A DNA stretch of 64,000 bases, taken from positions 84,713-148,712 of the forward strand of contig JBBTRR010000006.1 in the NCBI GenBank assembly GCA_038065095.1. The letters are read 5' to 3'. Each line of letters begins with the position of its first letter. Position 1 is the stretch's first letter. This stretch comes from Patescibacteria group bacterium. Lineage in GTDB: Bacteria; Patescibacteriota; Minisyncoccia; JACQLN01. Below the pieces are notes generated by a model that had not been told where the DNA came from, did no database searches, and saw nothing but the letters and a program-made list of their open reading frames with translations. Below, piece after piece: positions 1,115 to 62,117 of this stretch. A program made the translations under genes and the position numbers.

Positions 1115-1945
1115 TTAATGTTTTTGATTTAAAAGCTCACTAATATATTCAACCAAAGCCATATTGTGTTTATAATCCATTCTTTTTGGACCAATTATAG
1201 AAACAAAACCTTGTTTACCCTGAGTGGAATCGAAGGGTTCACCTTCTGGTAACTGATATTTTCCAGTAATTAAAGTAAATTCGTTTATTTCTTTTATAGG
1301 GTTTTCACTACCTATAAACACTTGAATCATTTCTTCCACCCCGTTAGAAGTCGCGCTCGCGATTTCATCGCGAGTCCTATGGACCGCGGCGCGGCTACTT
1401 CTAACGGGGTTCCAAAGTCCTTCAAAACAACTATCCATATTATCCATAAACGTCATAAGCTGGTTCATATTTTCAAAACTTTTAAATTCTGGCTCATCAA
1501 ATAAATTAGAAAAACCAAAACTATATGTATTTCCACCATCTGTGGTTCCTGTTACAGAAAGCTCGCGGGAAAGTTCGGAAGTTAGTTTAGATATTTCTTT
1601 TAATAAAGATTGTTCATCTGGCCAATTCTTTTTTAACGATTCTTTAACTTTTTGAGTTTCTTTTTGAGTTAGACCTGTTGCCGAAGTATTTAGCGTAGAC
1701 TTTTCAACCATATTTTCTTGTATATACAACCTGTATGCTTTATCTGTTGGGATGCGTCCAGCCGAAGTATGTGGACTAGATAAATAACCTTCTTTTTCTA
1801 ACTGATTCATTTCTTTACGAATCATAGGCGCCCCTATATCAAAACCACTCTTTTGAGAGAGAGATTTAGAACTAACAGGTTCGGCCATTTTGGTATGCTC
1901 TTCTATAACGGCCCAAAGAATATCTTTTTGGCGTTGGGAAATCAT
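1115..1945 (-). CDS. hrcA: Heat-inducible transcription repressor HrcA (carries an in-frame 71-72 nt palindromic insertion at 1339-1409)
   Basis: 276-aa ORF MISQRQKDILWAVIEEHTKMAEPVSSKSLSQK... typical HrcA wHTH N-terminus; CIRCE upstream; operon context with grpE-dnaK. Confidence 0.8.
   Translation of the reverse strand: MISQRQKDILWAVIEEHTKMAEPVSSKSLSQKSGFDIGAPMIRKEMNQLEKEGYLSSPHTSAGRIPTDKAYRLYIQENMVEKSTLNTSATGLTQKETQKVKESLKKNWPDEQSLLKEISKLTSELSRELSVTGTTDGGNTYSFGFSNLFDEPEFKSFENMNQLMTFMDNMDSCFEGLWNPVRSSRAAVHRTRDEIASATSNGVEEMIQVFIGSENPIKEINEFTLITGKYQLPEGEPFDSTQGKQGFVSIIGPKRMDYKHNMALVEYISELLNQKH
1339..1409. repeat. Palindromic element (family CCCCGTTAGA-TIR), copy A, inserted in-frame in hrcA
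   Basis: 13-bp perfect terminal inverted repeats ccccgttagaagt / acttctaacgggg enclosing GC-rich hairpins (ctcgcgatttcatcgcgag; ccgcggcgcgg); GC content far above flanks; encodes inserted peptide ~VRSSRAAVHRTRDEIASATSNGVE. Confidence 0.7.
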
Positions 1946-1969
1946 TGTTATTTAAACCAGTTTAGCGAA

Positions 1970-1996
1970 TTATCACTCCATAGTCAAGAGTGATAA
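1970..1996. promoter_or_regulatory. CIRCE operator (HrcA binding site) upstream of hrcA
   Basis: ttatcactc-N9-gagtgataa, one mismatch per half-site versus consensus TTAGCACTC-N9-GAGTGCTAA; located 25 nt upstream of hrcA start on minus strand. Confidence 0.75.
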
Positions 1997-2076
1997 CTTG
2001 ATTGACTTATAGCTATAGATATGTTACTATTAAACTATCGTAGTACCTAACAAAAACACAAAAAAAGGCGGCCCAT

Positions 2077-2304
2077 ATGCTAGAAGAAGCTACGTCGTTT
2101 GAAGAATTCAAAGGCAAAAGCTTTGAGGAAGTTTATAGAATGTACAAACGAGCTGATACGGCAAGAAGGGTTTTTGCTAGGATTATCCTGTTACAGATAG
2201 CCGTAACAGCCAAAGACCTAAAAATCGTGATGGAGATTTCCAACCCCCACTCTCCTTTGTATGCTTCGGCTAAAGAAAGGCTGGAACTACTGGAATCGAA
2301 ATGA
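2077..2304 (+). CDS. Hypothetical small protein (75 aa)
   Basis: ORF followed immediately by a strong intrinsic terminator; no recognizable family. Confidence 0.35.
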   Translation: MLEEATSFEEFKGKSFEEVYRMYKRADTARRVFARIILLQIAVTAKDLKIVMEISNPHSPLYASAKERLELLESK

Positions 2305-2340
2305 CCCCACCCCCCGACCAAATGGTCGGGGATTTTTTTT
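2305..2340 (+). terminator. Rho-independent terminator
   Basis: ccccgaccaaatggtcgggg stem-loop followed by tttttttt. Confidence 0.7.
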
Positions 2341-2428
2341 CTTGTTGACGATTTACCCTATAAATAATACTTTGTAACAGTTCAAAATAAGCTGTCCTTT
2401 TACAAACCTTTCTCGAGGAGAGTGCTCA

Positions 2429-2755
2429 ATGGCAATTATTGCGCAAGAAATGTTACAAGAAAAAAAACGCGAAAGGATTATGGCTATAGGCCTTTGTGCT
2501 GGATTATGGTTACTAGTAACATTTTTGGTTTACCATAACTTTGAAAACTTTAATCTTGATTCGGGTATTATCTTAATCTTGGCAACTTTGTATGTATATA
2601 TGAAATGCTACGATCTGTATAAAAAACCTGCAAAACTTGTGGCGTTACACGACTGTTCCGTAATGGGAGAAAAATTCCATATGGAAATCGGAAATGCTAA
2701 AGATCGTTGGAATTTCTGCCCGTGGTGTAGTGGAAAAATAACAATTGAAGAATGA
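2429..2755 (+). CDS. Hypothetical membrane protein with C-terminal zinc-ribbon-like Cys pairs (108 aa)
   Basis: Hydrophobic segment GLCAGLWLLVTFLVY; CSVMG...CPWCSG Cys pairs; followed by terminator. Confidence 0.4.
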   Translation: MAIIAQEMLQEKKRERIMAIGLCAGLWLLVTFLVYHNFENFNLDSGIILILATLYVYMKCYDLYKKPAKLVALHDCSVMGEKFHMEIGNAKDRWNFCPWCSGKITIEE

Positions 2756-2761
2756 TTTATG

Positions 2762-60627: not shown

Positions 60628-60702
60628 TTCTTAGCTGATTAGCTTCAAAAGCTTGTTAGGAAAATTCCTAAAAAGCTAAAAGCTAACGAAGCTAAAAAGC
60701 TG
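60628..60702. repeat. PAL repeat, copy 7, forming an intervening sequence in 23S helix 25
   Basis: Inserted right after GGGAAACCGAGTCTTAATAGGGCG where helix 25 lies; sequence ...tagcttcttagctgattagcttcaaaagcttgttaggaaaattcctaaaaagctaaaagctaacgaagctaaaaagct. Confidence 0.65.
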
Positions 60703-61689
60703 ATTTGTACGCCCTATTAAGACTCGGTTTCCCTATGCTTGCGTCTAACAAAAGACTTAAGCAAGCGATGTACATAAAGTCGTTGGCTCATTCTCCAAGA
60801 GGCACACCATCACCCACCACTGCACAGCAGTGGAAGCTCCAATATACAATAAACAAATTCCAAACATATTTTGTTTGTTATTTGTAATTTGTGTTTTGAA
60901 ATTTCCAGTGCTGTGCACTGGTAAGGGCTATGATTCTTTGTAGGTAATTGATTTCAGGTACTATTTCACCGCCCTTCCGGGCTACTTTTAACCTTTCCCT
61001 CACGGTACTAGTTCACTATCGATCTCAAAAGGTATTTAGCTTTGGGAGTATAGTCCTCCCGGTTTCACCCGAAGTTGTCGTTCCTCGGGCTACTCAGGAA
61101 TGGATAAGAACTAAGAGTTAATTTTCGCTTACAGGACTATCACCTTTTATAGTTGCCCTTTCCAGGAGCATTCTGCTAACTAAAACTTGTGTCCTTGCTT
61201 ACGCATAATCCATCCTACAACCCCAACCGTTCAATATAGAAATACTGCCCGATTGGTTTGAGCTGCTCCCTGTTCGCTCGCCGCTACTAAGGGAATAAAT
61301 TAAACAGTCATTGCTTTAGCCTACTAACCCCCTAGACTACGTGTGCCTAGGAAGTTAGTTTGCTAAAGATGAGTTGTTAATCTGACATATCTTTTCCTCT
61401 GCTTACTGAAATGTTTTACTTCGGCAGGTTCCCTTCTTGGAGTTACCAACCTCCAAGACAATCTCGGTTCACGAGACTAGATTTCTCCATTCGGAAATCC
61501 CCGGATCAAAACTTGCTACACAGCTCCCCGAGGCTTATCGCAGTTACGCCACGTCCTTCATCGGCCTTTTGAGTCAAGGCATCCACCAATTACCCTTAAG
61601 TTCACGAAAGCACTAAGACCACAAAATGGCCCGTGCTTTCCCTCTTTCCTACATAATCGCACTTTTCAAGTGATTAAAAATTCTATTCC

Positions 61690-61750
61690 GAGCTTCTAGA
61701 AATTTTGCTTTTTTGATTTTTAGGAATTTCCTAACAAGCTAAAAGCTAAC
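61690..61750. repeat. PAL repeat, copy 8 (partial) in 23S leader
   Basis: tttttaggaatttcctaacaagctaaaagctaac. Confidence 0.5.
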
Positions 61751-61910
61751 CCGGTAACGTACATTCGTATGCGTTACTGGGCTAATAACTAAAAGCTATT
61801 TGTATGATGCCGTTTACATGTTATTCAGTTGTTAATGTTCAAACGCTTATGATTTTATTCGTATCATTCGTATACATTCGTAGATTGGTATCGATATGCC
61901 GAAGGCATTA

Positions 61911-61938
61911 AAAAAATCCCGTGAAGCGGGATCGTTTA
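61911..61938 (-). terminator. Rho-independent terminator (minus strand) upstream of 23S leader
   Basis: Minus strand gatcccgcttcacgggat + ttttttt; second hairpin atgccttcggcat follows. Confidence 0.55.
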
Positions 61939-62019
61939 CAAACCGACTAAAACAGGACACGATCTCATTCGCTTCTATGTTTTAAATGGTATTTTTTTAA
62001 CGTCATAAACGTAAAGCCA

Positions 62020-62048
62020 TTATATTCTTTATATTATGTAGCGTCAAC
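62020..62048 (-). promoter_or_regulatory. Candidate sigma70-type promoter on minus strand
   Basis: Minus strand TTGACG-N17-TATAAT (plus-strand attata at 62020-62025, cgtcaa at 62043-62048). Confidence 0.4.
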
Positions 62049-62117
62049 CCCGTTAGAAACAGCCCGCCCCTAGGCCCTTTGGGCGCGCAAAGCGCGGGCG
62101 TGGTTTCTAACGGGGTC
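62047..62117. repeat. Palindromic element, CCCCGTTAGA-TIR family, copy B
   Basis: accccgttagaaac ... gtttctaacggggt 14-bp TIRs enclosing GC-rich hairpin gggcgcgcaaagcgcgggc. Confidence 0.7.

Follow-up and report, generated by a model that had tools for sequence, protein, structure and literature searches.

Small hairpin-ended DNA elements in many bacterial phyla include a lineage that carries a complete tRNA gene within a tRNA gene

A tRNA-Val gene on this contig is broken in its anticodon loop, and the insert that separates its halves contains a second, complete tRNA-Val. The ends of this insert recur twice more in the window, as we call the whole 64-kb stretch of DNA analysed: inside hrcA (copy A) and beside a promoter-like site facing the 23S rRNA gene (copy B). 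What kind of element unites these sites, and how did one tRNA gene come to lie inside another? The main reading of the original prediction, that of a small palindromic family in which one MITE-like copy (copy C) delivers a tRNA while splitting a tRNA gene, is supported by the analysis described here and extends much further than the window showed.

Shared ends and variable interiors

Six exact matches to the 10-mer CCCCGTTAGA in the window form three inverted pairs (1339/1400, 34841/34937 and 62048/62106) that mark copies A, C and B, and no shuffled sequence contained any such pair. When one mismatch was allowed, 11 matches were found against 2.5 expected, a number reached in 0 of 100 shuffles. 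The predicted sharing of termini by the three copies is thus confirmed. Three covarying base pairs extend the 10-mer to a terminal inverted repeat (TIR) of 13 bp common to A, B and C; the perfect inverted repeat measures 13-14 bp in the window (A CCCCGTTAGAAGT, B CCCCGTTAGAAAC, C CCCCGTTAGATAT) and mostly 12-14 bp across the family. As in MITEs, the TIR is common to all copies, including 140 from other genomes. Among these 140, stem positions 11, 12 and 13 form Watson-Crick pairs in 130, 128 and 98 copies, compared with 54, 82 and 46 expected, whereas from position 14 onward pairing is at chance level, so that the TIR, closed by an R-Y pair, has a sharp 13-bp limit. The covariation at positions 11-13 points to a structural requirement, beyond protein-binding ends alone.

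One further candidate had been proposed:

3244..3355: copy D, 112 bp, AT-rich, with the imperfect inverted repeat ACCCCGTAAAAAC / GTTTTTGTACGGGGT

Common to it and the family are only CCCCGT and an imperfect 12-13-bp inverted repeat. Copy D may be a distant relative at most, with membership unproven.

The elements are 30-388 bp long and non-coding, and their interiors are highly variable, consisting of two GC hairpins, AT-rich filler, nested copies of the element itself or a tRNA gene. Interiors of different copies are unrelated except within subfamilies, and copies within one genome have no common interior, which is unusual for MITEs. Within the GC-rich subfamily the two-hairpin architecture is conserved, with 12 compensatory pairs. 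Copies A and B both fold, as anticipated, into a 14-bp stem bearing two GC-rich hairpins (z = -5.5 to -7.8). No Rfam family matches the elements.

A search beyond the window recovered the family from species-representative genomes, MAGs among them, of Patescibacteria, Omnitrophota, Planctomycetota, Desulfobacterota and other phyla, with at least 120 DNA stretches matched in species-representative genomes of many phyla; the phylum assignments depend on MAG bins. IMG/VR yielded only 4 matches. The density in the window is three copies per 64 kb.

On either side, family copies are bordered by a Y-N-N-R tetranucleotide, of which T-N-N-A is the commonest form (each fixed position agrees in ~80%). 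About half of the copies (63 of 130) have the same tetranucleotide on the left and on the right and therefore lie between direct repeats. Certain non-identical pairs, however, turn up repeatedly in different phyla (12 times for TTCA..TAAA, over 120 times for TTCA..CAAG), indicating that in those subfamilies the tetranucleotides move with the element and are not target-site duplications. The evidence for target duplication is accordingly mixed: the identical flanks and a 5-bp repeat in hrcA stand against the recurrent unequal pairs and the loss of 2-4 target nucleotides in the tRNA-carrying lineage.

Insertions in hrcA and beside the 23S promoter

The features around copies A and B are as follows.

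1115..1945, minus strand: hrcA, host gene of copy A (Pfam HrcA, 276 aa)
1334..1338 and 1410-1414: TTCCA, 5-bp direct repeat around copy A
1339..1409: copy A, 71 bp, TIR CCCCGTTAGAAGT/ACTTCTAACGGGG, interior of two GC-rich hairpins
62019..62047, minus strand: promoter-like site TTGACG-17-TATAAT (11/12), facing the 23S rRNA gene
62044-62047 and 62116-62119: TCAA, 4-bp direct repeat bordering copy B
62048..62115: copy B, 68 bp, TIR CCCCGTTAGAAAC/GTTTCTAACGGGG

Copy A is read in frame within hrcA as the peptide PVRSSRAAVHRTRDEIASATSNGV. Comparison of orthologues revealed alleles with and without the segment: an empty allele (L004) encodes a 97% identical protein of 255 aa, so the in-frame insertion stands as predicted, with a net gain of 21 aa (276 vs 255) and not the ~24 aa first estimated. 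Copy A preserves the frame together with a 13-nt deletion, which accounts for its survival. In the empty allele TGGAA (coding strand; equivalent to TTCCA) is present once, and the empty and filled alleles look like the two states of a 5-bp target duplication. An HrcA 70% identical to that of the window bears, at the same site, a B-type copy near-identical to window copy B, and other inserts occupy this site in relatives. Copy A probably arrived in a permissive loop of hrcA.

Further in-frame copies were found in a LamG-like gene and in uvrC, which upholds the suggested likeness to Rickettsia palindromic elements (RPE): these too are palindromic, lie in frame in coding genes and add a tolerated extra peptide. 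Unlike RPE, the family described here occurs in other organisms and has other sequences, and its hrcA copy required the deletion to keep the frame. We know of no RPE with a tRNA gene as cargo.

Copy B has a Y-shaped, GC-rich interior that recurs in other genomes. Its placement next to an rRNA-region promoter was correctly noted: the -35 hexamer of the promoter-like site adjoins copy B and includes the TCAA repeat. Copy B lies in the spacer upstream of the putative 23S promoter.

A tRNA gene nested in a tRNA gene

Copy C lies between two tRNA-Val halves; the features at and around it are as follows.

34350..34798: span of the 34-nt ACAAA-rich inverted repeats (34350-34383 and 34765-34798) around the PF05635 gene
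34402..34749, minus strand: PF05635 gene (23S rRNA intervening-sequence protein / four-helix bundle), immediately following the outer 3' half
34801..34836, minus strand: outer 3' half, T38 to A73, TTGCAAAGG...ACCGTCCA
34837..34950, minus strand: copy C with its conserved 4-nt flanks, TTCA-CCCCGTTAGATAT...ATATCTAACGGGG-CAAG
34841-34946, minus strand: copy C from TIR to TIR, an insert of 106 nt
34858..34930, minus strand: inner (cargo) tRNA-Val(CAC)
34951..34982, minus strand: outer 5' half of the resident tRNA-Val(CAC), GGGCGATTAGTTCAATGGTAGAACGCTGCATT, last base T33
35053..35082, minus strand: promoter-like site TCGACA-18-TAGAAT (10/12), upstream of the outer tRNA

The inner gene is the complete tRNA-Val(CAC) that had been reported between tRNA halves: it was identified by ARAGORN, is the top Rfam tRNA match in the window (72 bits), and has perfect stems throughout except for pair 27-43. 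The break between the outer halves falls in the anticodon loop, of which only TT and T are left. At this locus, flanked by the same pair of genes, relatives (L128, L129/L130) carry just one tRNA-Val(CAC) gene, which is intact. The D-arm of this orthologue is present in the outer halves and not in the inner tRNA, whose D-arm (GCTC/GAGC) differs from that of the resident lineage.

The outer halves in the window mispair at A6.C67 and C27.A43, and sister strains have a better-matching 3' half (…ATTGCCCA) at the same place, which indicates that the 3' half in the window was brought in by recombination. It is not the original partner of the 5' half, having been swapped in with the PF05635 gene, which is missing in relatives and in the sister strains (allele 2). 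The breakpoint of this allele swap falls exactly at the right terminus of the element.

The arrangement is not peculiar to this locus. At least 50 loci in public data have a tRNA within a tRNA, and we found no earlier description of this arrangement. All 50 tRNA-carrying copies (50/50) are co-oriented with the outer tRNA and lie within tRNA-derived flanks; their cargo comprises Val CAC/TAC/GAC, Ala CGC, Pro TGG/CGG, Thr CGT, Arg TCT and Leu CAG. They sit in the anticodon loop or, in the case of Thr, Arg and one Val copy, in the D loop. The flanks of this lineage are TTCA...CA(A/C/G)G, with CA on both sides of every copy. When TTCA..CAAG was replaced by CA, an outer tRNA with the anticodon of the inner tRNA was restored at ~20 loci (17 distinct), and the outer and inner anticodons agree wherever the outer tRNA could be reconstructed. 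Between 2 and 4 nt of the target loop are lost, not duplicated. Judging from its sequence, the inner tRNA is no fresh copy of the outer one: the two are 63-86% identical, with compensatory differences among them.

The unit itself moves horizontally, since near-identical elements are found in unrelated host tRNA genes. In L148 and L243 the elements differ at 1 of 114 positions, whereas the halves of the host tRNA differ at 14 of 40 and 11 of 40, with no relation between the far flanks; the same pattern holds for L147/L160 and L170/L196.

Tyrosine-integrase elements and phages with att sites in anticodon or T loops likewise target tRNA genes, often at the anticodon loop, and bring sequence that keeps the tRNA functional. 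They measure kilobases and encode an integrase; their insertion yields a functional chimeric gene and a direct repeat of the tRNA's 3' part alone, whereas the tRNA-carrying element is ~110 bp long with inverted ends, has no ORF, integrase or duplicated 3' segment, and nests a complete tRNA in a dead host gene. Function is predicted to be preserved here through the supply of a complete cognate tRNA in the anticodon or D loop.

How the elements move and what the tRNA lineage does

Taken together, these data are best explained if the family, with copies A, B and C as members, is small, non-coding, MITE-like mobile DNA, which we consider probable for the account as a whole. The elements would have moved as non-autonomous units, by DNA-level transposition presumably served in trans by a separate enzyme. 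Among 1,034 ORFs from 240 loci, no recurrent transposase or recombinase gene accompanies the elements, none lies between long-range terminus pairs, and no parent insertion sequence with the same ends and a transposase was present in 1.7 Mb of fetched loci, in which head-to-tail element junctions numbered only three. Bacterial MITEs and palindromic repeats such as Correia/NEMIS, ERIC and RUP resemble the family in being small and non-coding, with TIRs, short direct repeats, many copies, strain polymorphism and no transposase of their own. Unlike them, the elements here share only 10+3 bp per end with unrelated interiors, have ends that covary as a structured hairpin, recur across many phyla, have no parent insertion sequence that we found, and include one lineage bearing a whole tRNA gene.

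Within this MITE-like family, the lineage of copy C would carry its tRNA gene into a loop of the chromosomal tRNA gene for the same anticodon, with both genes always co-oriented. Insertion removes 2-4 nt of the loop, which leaves the resident tRNA gene dead. Transcribed from the resident promoter, the cargo tRNA would take over the role of that gene; in the window the nested unit is probably transcribed from the site at 35053..35082. Because loss of the element would then mean loss of the tRNA, the element would be locked in. The match of anticodons could reflect either active targeting or selective lock-in alone. We tentatively propose, as a possibility, that this 100-120-bp hairpin-ended lineage is a mobile tRNA-gene replacement cassette, which would insert at CA in the anticodon or D loop of a same-anticodon gene, kill that gene, take its promoter and role, make the host dependent, spread horizontally and be replaceable in series, the cognate match arising by active targeting that reads the tRNA gene or transcript and not by selection alone.

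The ends might instead be sites at which a tyrosine or serine recombinase, or an HUH-type single-stranded DNA enzyme, acts on the folded hairpin (cf. attC, IS200/IS605), and not DDE-type MITE ends; cassettes would then be exchanged between existing sites, with the tRNA lineage integrating at a CA core in tRNA loops. We regard this as rather unlikely, although a good deal fits: conservation limited to structure and 10 bp, the covarying stem with its sharp limit, CA on both sides of all tRNA-lineage copies, inherited subfamily-specific unequal flanks like the cleavage tetranucleotides of IS200/IS605, and a swap breakpoint precisely at the right terminus. Two ends joined would, moreover, form a perfect palindrome around Y-NN-R, like a recombinase crossover site. 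The element hexamers GTTAGA/TCTAAC fit the integron core consensus, GTTRRR/YYYAAC, and attC sites are likewise hairpins with such hexamers, covarying stems and a variable centre of 50-140 nt. Relative to the loop, however, the order of the hexamers is reversed: attC has RYYYAAC 5' and GTTRRRY 3', whereas the family has GTTAGA 5' and TCTAAC 3' on both strands. The elements are also scattered singly, even inside genes, with no cassette arrays seen and no integrase among neighbouring ORFs. Target sites have no arm similarity, TT and AG (or CGG) lie between the native loop bases and CA, which simple core exchange does not predict, and the empty and filled hrcA alleles resemble a 5-bp target duplication.

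That the inverted repeats are immobile functional hairpins (RNA processing stems, terminators or regulatory sites), spread via a conserved trans-acting factor and with the tRNA in the stem as a processing unit, seems improbable. It would suit the occurrence of one 10-mer across phyla with covariation beyond it, the conserved two-hairpin subfamily with its compensatory pairs, and the 5S rRNA of the window, which lies between 20-nt inverted repeats starting CTCCGTTT. Near-identical alleles nevertheless differ in presence or absence of the element, copies lie in frame inside protein-coding genes and nested within one another, direct repeats flank about half of them, identical units occupy unrelated contexts, and Rfam has no matching family.

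Could copy C instead be removed from RNA, with the outer halves as functional tRNA exons, spliced or held as a split tRNA by the 13-bp helix, and the inner tRNA freed by RNase P and RNase Z? Group I introns occur in bacterial tRNA anticodon loops, Patescibacteria included, and tRNA introns are abundant in that group (PMC13011429), which counts in favour. So do the fold of copy C, in which the outer anticodon stem, flanks and TIR form a single, almost uninterrupted helix tipped by the inner cloverleaf (z = -5.1), the perfect stems kept by many outer halves (21 of 28), and a compensatory pair difference in the outer acceptor stem between L170 and L196. Both group I introns and archaeal bulge-helix-bulge (BHB) introns or split tRNAs also interrupt tRNA genes within the anticodon (or D) loop and form a helix from sequences beside the break. 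Both intron and split-tRNA readings fail because the outer gene is without some of its anticodon nucleotides: positions 36-37 or 34-37 are missing, so that removal of the insert leaves a loop of 3 or 5 nt and the 7-nt loop cannot be restored. Copy C has no ribozyme core (Rfam Intron_gpI has no match in the window at the gathering threshold), and its 106-nt insert is itself a second tRNA with the same anticodon. Nor is there BHB geometry; in place of two 3-nt bulges and a 4-bp helix, a continuous helix has a symmetric 2x2 or 2x1 internal loop beside CCCC/GGGG. The outer halves of L091, L231 and L235-L239 are incomplete or missing, those in the window derive from different tRNA genes and mispair, and Thr, Arg and one Val copy lie in the D loop. 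This account, with the permuted or intron-like tRNA once suggested for the locus, is therefore very improbable. Finally, repeats may be collapsed or wrongly joined when metagenomes are assembled, and the two tRNAs of the locus are paralogues, but an assembly chimera or local tandem-duplication artefact is close to negligible as an explanation: identical junctions were recovered from 8 independent assemblies of the population, including a 162-kb contig and NCBI MAGs, and from over 40 unrelated contigs of other metagenomes, and a difference of 14-37% between inner and outer tRNA is too great for assembly collapse.

Mobile DNA aimed at such genes is known in eukaryotes, where fish have Dada DNA transposons with specificity for sites within tRNA or snRNA genes (PMC8869645). 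Unlike the family described here, Dada elements are autonomous, with a transposase, use multicopy targets and bring no replacement gene. If the tentative reading of the copy C lineage as replacement cassettes with active targeting is true, they would be homing elements of a new kind, and would give minimal-genome bacteria a new way of replacing tRNAs horizontally.

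Copies in the window and the hrcA insertion

The window represents a Patescibacteria (CPR) population from Hainich groundwater metagenomes. The conserved 10-mer terminus CCCCGTTAGA and its complement lie exactly at 1339/1400, 34841/34937 and 62048/62106, as the original prediction had placed them. The features concerned are the following.

1115-1945, minus strand: hrcA (Pfam)
1339-1409: copy A, in hrcA
62048-62115: copy B, near a promoter-like site of the 23S gene
34841-34946: copy C, in a tRNA-Val gene
34858-34930, minus strand: inner tRNA-Val(CAC) (ARAGORN; Rfam 72 bits, the top tRNA score of the window)
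3244-3355: copy D, proposed distant relative

With at most one mismatch, CCCCGTTAGA matched the window 11 times against 2.5 expected; no shuffle reached 11, and the paired terminus pattern did not occur at all among shuffled sequences. Copies A–C end in perfect inverted repeats of 13–14 bp, and A and B, as single strands, form a 14-bp stem topped by a pair of GC-rich hairpins (z about −5.5 to −7.8). Copy D has only CCCCGT and an imperfect repeat in common with them and is at most a possible distant relative. Rfam searches of the window (gathering threshold), of copies A and B (E ≤ 10) and of 19 loci with cargo-less copies found no family for the element, returning only miRNA-like hairpin matches at chance level.

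Comparison of hrcA orthologues revealed that the copy A segment is polymorphic: a protein 97% identical to the window HrcA (P0001, locus L004) is encoded by an allele without it. In the DNA of the filled allele TGGAA stands on both sides of the element (TGGAA-[element]-TGGAA), against a single TGGAA in the empty allele; the filled allele also lacks 13 nt immediately downstream of the element. The sum, 71 + 5 − 13 = 63 nt, implies that insertion of copy A by itself frameshifts hrcA and that the frame is kept only with the 13-nt deletion. The predicted in-frame state is therefore real, but the gain is 21 codons rather than ~24. HrcA is 276 aa long in the window, compared with 243–284 aa (mostly 245–260) in its closest relatives. 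In another population (P0004, L005), an HrcA with 70% identity contains at the same site a near-identical reverse complement of copy B, likewise in frame (PVR...SNGV). The inserts of two more relatives at this site are unrelated, and one of these is a different palindrome. Since different inserts occupy this site in several populations, it appears to be a permissive loop, repeatedly hit, or an insertion hot spot. Recorded there in other populations (L006 1012-1833 and P0008) are an unrelated palindromic insert, CCCGCACCTTTTG...CAAAAGGTGCGGG, and a third insert. Two related populations have, between hrcA and grpE, a variant element that ends in CCCCGTTACT...AGTAACGGGG (L005 2438-2543; L006 1909-2014).

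Several other features of the window were recorded. The 23S rRNA match (57921-61609) spans 3689 nt versus a 2925-nt model, corresponding to about 760 nt of insertions, one of which is a hairpin with 51-nt arms (60816-60922); Rfam called no group I intron in the 23S region. The 5S rRNA gene (56681-56797) stands between 20-nt inverted repeats, CTCCGTTTCAAAAAATTGGG and CCCAAATTTTTGAAACGGAG, that are 95% complementary (56667-56812) and probably form a processing stem; the first bases of the repeat loosely resemble the element terminus. An ORF at 26462-33712 encodes 2416 aa; it contains long internal repeats, with about 290 aa in each of two near-identical blocks, and a C-terminal stretch that, judged from the sequence itself, appears Hint/intein-like. 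Its counterparts in loci L128 and L258 match Peptidase_S74, and that in L258 also gives a faint intein-splicing match.

A resident tRNA-Val(CAC) gene broken by a different one

Copy C contains a complete tRNA-Val(CAC) gene (the inner or cargo tRNA) and splits a tRNA-Val gene (the outer tRNA), as predicted; both ARAGORN and Rfam, and relatives with an intact gene, bear this out. On the minus strand the 5′ part reads GGGCGATTAGTTCAATGGTAGAACGCTGCA-TT, then TTCA-CCCCGTTAGATAT-CAT-[tRNA-Val(CAC)]-CAAAA-ATATCTAACGGGG-CAAG, followed by the outer 3′ half, T-TGCAA-AGGTC-ACAGG-TTCAAAT-CCTGT-ACCGTCC-A. The neighbours of this locus, genes for a 161-aa protein and a MerR protein, recur in L128 and L129/L130, where they are separated by about 210 nt containing one intact tRNA-Val(CAC) and neither the element nor the PF05635 gene. 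The outer halves have the D-arm GTTC/GAAC and adjacent bases in common with these orthologues, and the inner tRNA has GCTC/GAGC, which identifies the outer gene as the resident and the inner gene as the newcomer. The resident tRNA-Val(CAC) gene has thus been broken, with a different tRNA-Val(CAC) gene lying in the break.

The resident loop TTCACAT has become TT...T in the window, with loss of the anticodon and A37, so that no excision of any kind could yield a decoding tRNA from the outer gene. This loss argues against the permuted or intron-like arrangement that had been suggested, and copy C is neither a group I nor a BHB intron. The whole region folds as a single long helix, made up of the anticodon stem, the flanks and the 13-bp repeat and capped by the inner cloverleaf. 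Upstream of the outer 5′ half there is a promoter-like site. The nested unit is present in all eight independent assemblies that encode an identical 161-aa protein, which excludes an assembly artefact.

These eight assemblies comprise two alleles, the same up to the right terminus and divergent beyond it. The window-type allele continues as CAAG-T-TGCAA...ACCGTCCA and then the PF05635 gene, the other as CACGG-T-TGCAG...ATTGCCCA without that gene. Clean pairing with the outer 5′ half is seen only for the ATTGCCCA-type 3′ half, so the outer tRNA 3′ half in the window and the PF05635 cassette were brought in by recombination, with the element terminus as the left end of the exchange. The swapped half accounts for the A6.C67 and C27.A43 mispairs without decay. 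The PF05635 (23S rRNA intervening-sequence protein) gene, in the 34350-34836 region, lies between 34-nt ACAAA-rich inverted repeats; it came with the foreign tRNA 3′ half and is strain-variable among L255-L261, strains that are identical upstream. No clear association of PF05635 with the element was found in 1.64 Mb of loci, which contained two such genes. In L127 (2277-2365), whose neighbour protein shows 99% identity, a different small hairpin, GTTAAAAGCAAA...TTTGCTTTTAAC, comes after the tRNA-Val 5′ end GGGCGATTAGT and before the contig end; this may be another kind of insertion in the same tRNA gene.

tRNA-carrying copies in other genomes

Among the matches listed in an unbiased genome scan, three copies contain a tRNA: those of the window, L073 (a Saccharibacteria MAG) and L091 (a Spirochaetia MAG). 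All three are flanked by TTCA...CAAG, a pair rare family-wide. Scanning metagenomes for this flank pair matched at least 120 contigs, and 47 of the 124 TTCA...CAAG copies among the matches listed contain a complete tRNA.

Cargo tRNAs of the TTCA...CAAG copies (metagenome matches listed)
Ala(CGC): 14 copies
Val(CAC): 9 copies
Val(TAC): 8 copies
Val(GAC): 3 copies
Pro(TGG): 6 copies
Pro(CGG): 1 copy
Thr(CGT): 4 copies
Arg(TCT): 1 copy
Leu(CAG): 1 copy

Every tRNA-carrying copy among these matches (47/47) is bracketed by pieces of a second tRNA gene, co-oriented with the cargo. Val, Ala and Leu copies interrupt the anticodon loop, as do the Pro copies with opposite flank orientation; the Thr and Arg copies and one Val copy interrupt the D loop. 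Common to this lineage is a junction, x-TT-CA-[CCCC...GGGG]-CA-AG-y, in which CA (TG on the opposite strand) stands on either side, with CACG and CAGG as right-flank variants. Usually C36 and A37 of the target are lost, extending to positions 34–37 in the window type and most Ala copies; L159 has lost C34 and A35. When TTCA...CAAG was replaced by CA, ARAGORN called an outer tRNA with the anticodon of the inner one at about 20 loci (17 distinct). An ambiguous exception to the anticodon match is L073, whose outer gene has a Thr-like body; this outer tRNA itself ends in a terminus, making serial replacement possible.

The inner tRNA is not a fresh duplicate of the outer, since the two are only 63–86% identical, with compensatory pair differences. 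In 19 of 26 cases its nearest neighbour is another inner tRNA, and pairs of loci carry near-identical elements in unrelated hosts.

Differences between paired loci
L148/L243: element 1/114; outer halves 14/40 and 11/40; far flanks unalignable
L147/L160: element 6/113; outer halves 12/40 and 14/40; far flanks unalignable
L170/L196: element 0/113; outer halves 1/40 and 3/40, including a compensatory pair; far flanks unrelated

These pairs show that the tRNA-carrying unit moves horizontally. The identical tract beside the junctions measures only 5–7 nt (L148/L243), too short for entry by homologous recombination through the tRNA halves, so ordinary homologous recombination does not explain the spread. 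The tandem topology predicted by loop-to-loop recombination, two chimeric tRNAs around a terminus junction, was not seen. Reconstituted outer tRNAs had no mismatch over 17 stem pairs in 21 of 28 cases, and the outer halves are truncated or absent in L091, L231 and L235-L239. This range, from perfect to gone, fits repeated insertion followed by decay.

Two explanations of the cognate match remain. The element may actively target the cognate tRNA gene: every tRNA-carrying copy found lies in a tRNA gene, although neutral sites often have cargo-less copies, and many outer halves remain intact. Alternatively, insertions may be rare, with only self-complementing ones surviving and then becoming locked in, any other tRNA insertion being lethal.

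A widespread family and its possible mode of movement

One genome per species was scanned for CCCCGTTAGA-N36-96-TCTAACGGGG, and at least 120 DNA stretches matched, where by our own arithmetic about 33 matches are expected by chance in the entire collection; the predicted family has further copies in many phyla. Among the matches listed are MAGs of many Patescibacteria classes (Saccharibacteria included), Omnitrophota, Planctomycetota (Pirellulales, Phycisphaerae, Brocadia), Desulfobacterota, Cloacimonadota, Bacteroidales, Nitrospirota, Nitrospinota, Spirochaetia and others. In 105 of 130 copies the perfect repeat extends to 12–14 bp, beyond the search pattern. Outside each end stands a tetranucleotide T-N-N-A (~80% per fixed position), with a C-N-N-G minority; in 63/130 the left tetranucleotide is the same as the right one. 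Stem positions 11, 12 and 13 vary in base between copies and keep their pairing, being Watson–Crick paired in 130, 128 and 98 of 140 copies (54, 82 and 46 by chance); from position 14 onward pairing is at chance level. None of these properties was required by the search, which shows that the matches are genuine. In variants of the 10-mer (CCCCGTTGGA, CCCCGTTACA, CCCCGTTACT and CCCCGTTAAA) a change in one arm is matched by one in the other. The interior, about 10 to about 370 nt long, is for the most part unrelated between copies; in the A/B subfamily two hairpins inside the stem are conserved, with 12 compensatory base pairs among 14 sequences. Phage carriage was rejected because viral contigs (IMG/VR) gave only four matches, and hairpin loops are unsupported as a general target (20 flank stems in the unbiased set, 20.9 expected).

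Individual loci added further observations. In L164 (1360-1433) and L216 (about 3520-3630) a small copy interrupts the apical loop of a B-type copy's GCGC hairpin, so that one element nests inside another. In L175 (4700-5290), L136 and L161 a copy directly follows the stop codon of a LamG-like gene and precedes a displaced second version of that gene's last 17 codons; the copy in L161 is read in frame, and in L175 a PF05635 gene comes next. Copies of 69–70 nt with TTCA/CAAG flanks, in L083 (887-960), L133, L150, L168, L182, L192 and others, lie in a conserved context, AACTTAGCGAAGCGATCTCA ... GTGAGTAAT, which in a Bacteroidales MAG holds a short hairpin instead of the element.

The family is most likely non-autonomous mobile DNA whose sole requirement would be a 13-bp hairpin-forming end with a Y-N-N-R border, mobilised in trans by an enzyme that we did not find. 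Clustering 1,034 ORFs from 240 loci all-against-all for an autonomous partner gave housekeeping families only, and long-range terminus pairs enclose ordinary genes. In L023 (2166-5034) and L135 (5566-9552), inverted identical copies surround a 2.7–4-kb segment with a secreted-protein gene and an acetoacetyl-CoA synthetase gene, respectively, which is either a composite-like arrangement or an inversion substrate. A cut with a 4–5-nt stagger would fit the direct repeats and the empty and filled hrcA pair. That a recombinase or single-strand DNA enzyme instead acts on the folded ends seems to us unlikely, even though the stem covaries, some subfamilies inherit non-identical flanks and the tRNA-lineage junction has CA on both sides. 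At copy C, the resident promoter would transcribe the cargo tRNA, RNase P and RNase Z would free it from the stem, and the host would then depend on it.

The family works in the manner of MITEs, and copy A in hrcA is reminiscent of Rickettsia palindromic elements, but it belongs to no named family among those compared. Like tRNA-targeting integrative elements, the tRNA lineage targets tRNA genes and restores them; unlike a typical one it is far smaller, has inverted ends and no integrase, and brings a whole independent tRNA nested in a dead host gene. Dada transposons of fish target tRNA genes without replacing them (PMC8869645), and a survey of Patescibacteria tRNA introns covers group I introns and does not mention inverted repeats or hairpins (PMC13011429). 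The 10-mer occurs once in a paper on a 77-bp inverted repeat of P. gingivalis (PMC3969353). In the full-text literature searched, whose coverage is incomplete, we came across no account of bacterial cognate tRNA genes nested in this way and no relevant context for the 10-mer.

The in-frame copies are a second example, outside Rickettsia, of selfish DNA making proteins longer. One 13-bp hairpin end with near-arbitrary cargo, in many groundwater and sediment phyla, points to a widely distributed candidate enzyme that reads a short structured end; such an enzyme would be relevant to mobile-element biology and possibly usable as a tool. The tRNA-in-tRNA elements would also account for odd or partial tRNA calls by annotation tools in Patescibacteria. 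Few genes are as conserved or as hard to replace as those for tRNAs, and most isoacceptors are presumably encoded only once in the tiny Patescibacteria genomes. A 110-bp element that destroys and resupplies a tRNA gene would be a simple route for horizontal exchange of core translation genes, and an element that replaces a tRNA would represent minimal genetic addiction by a mobile element.
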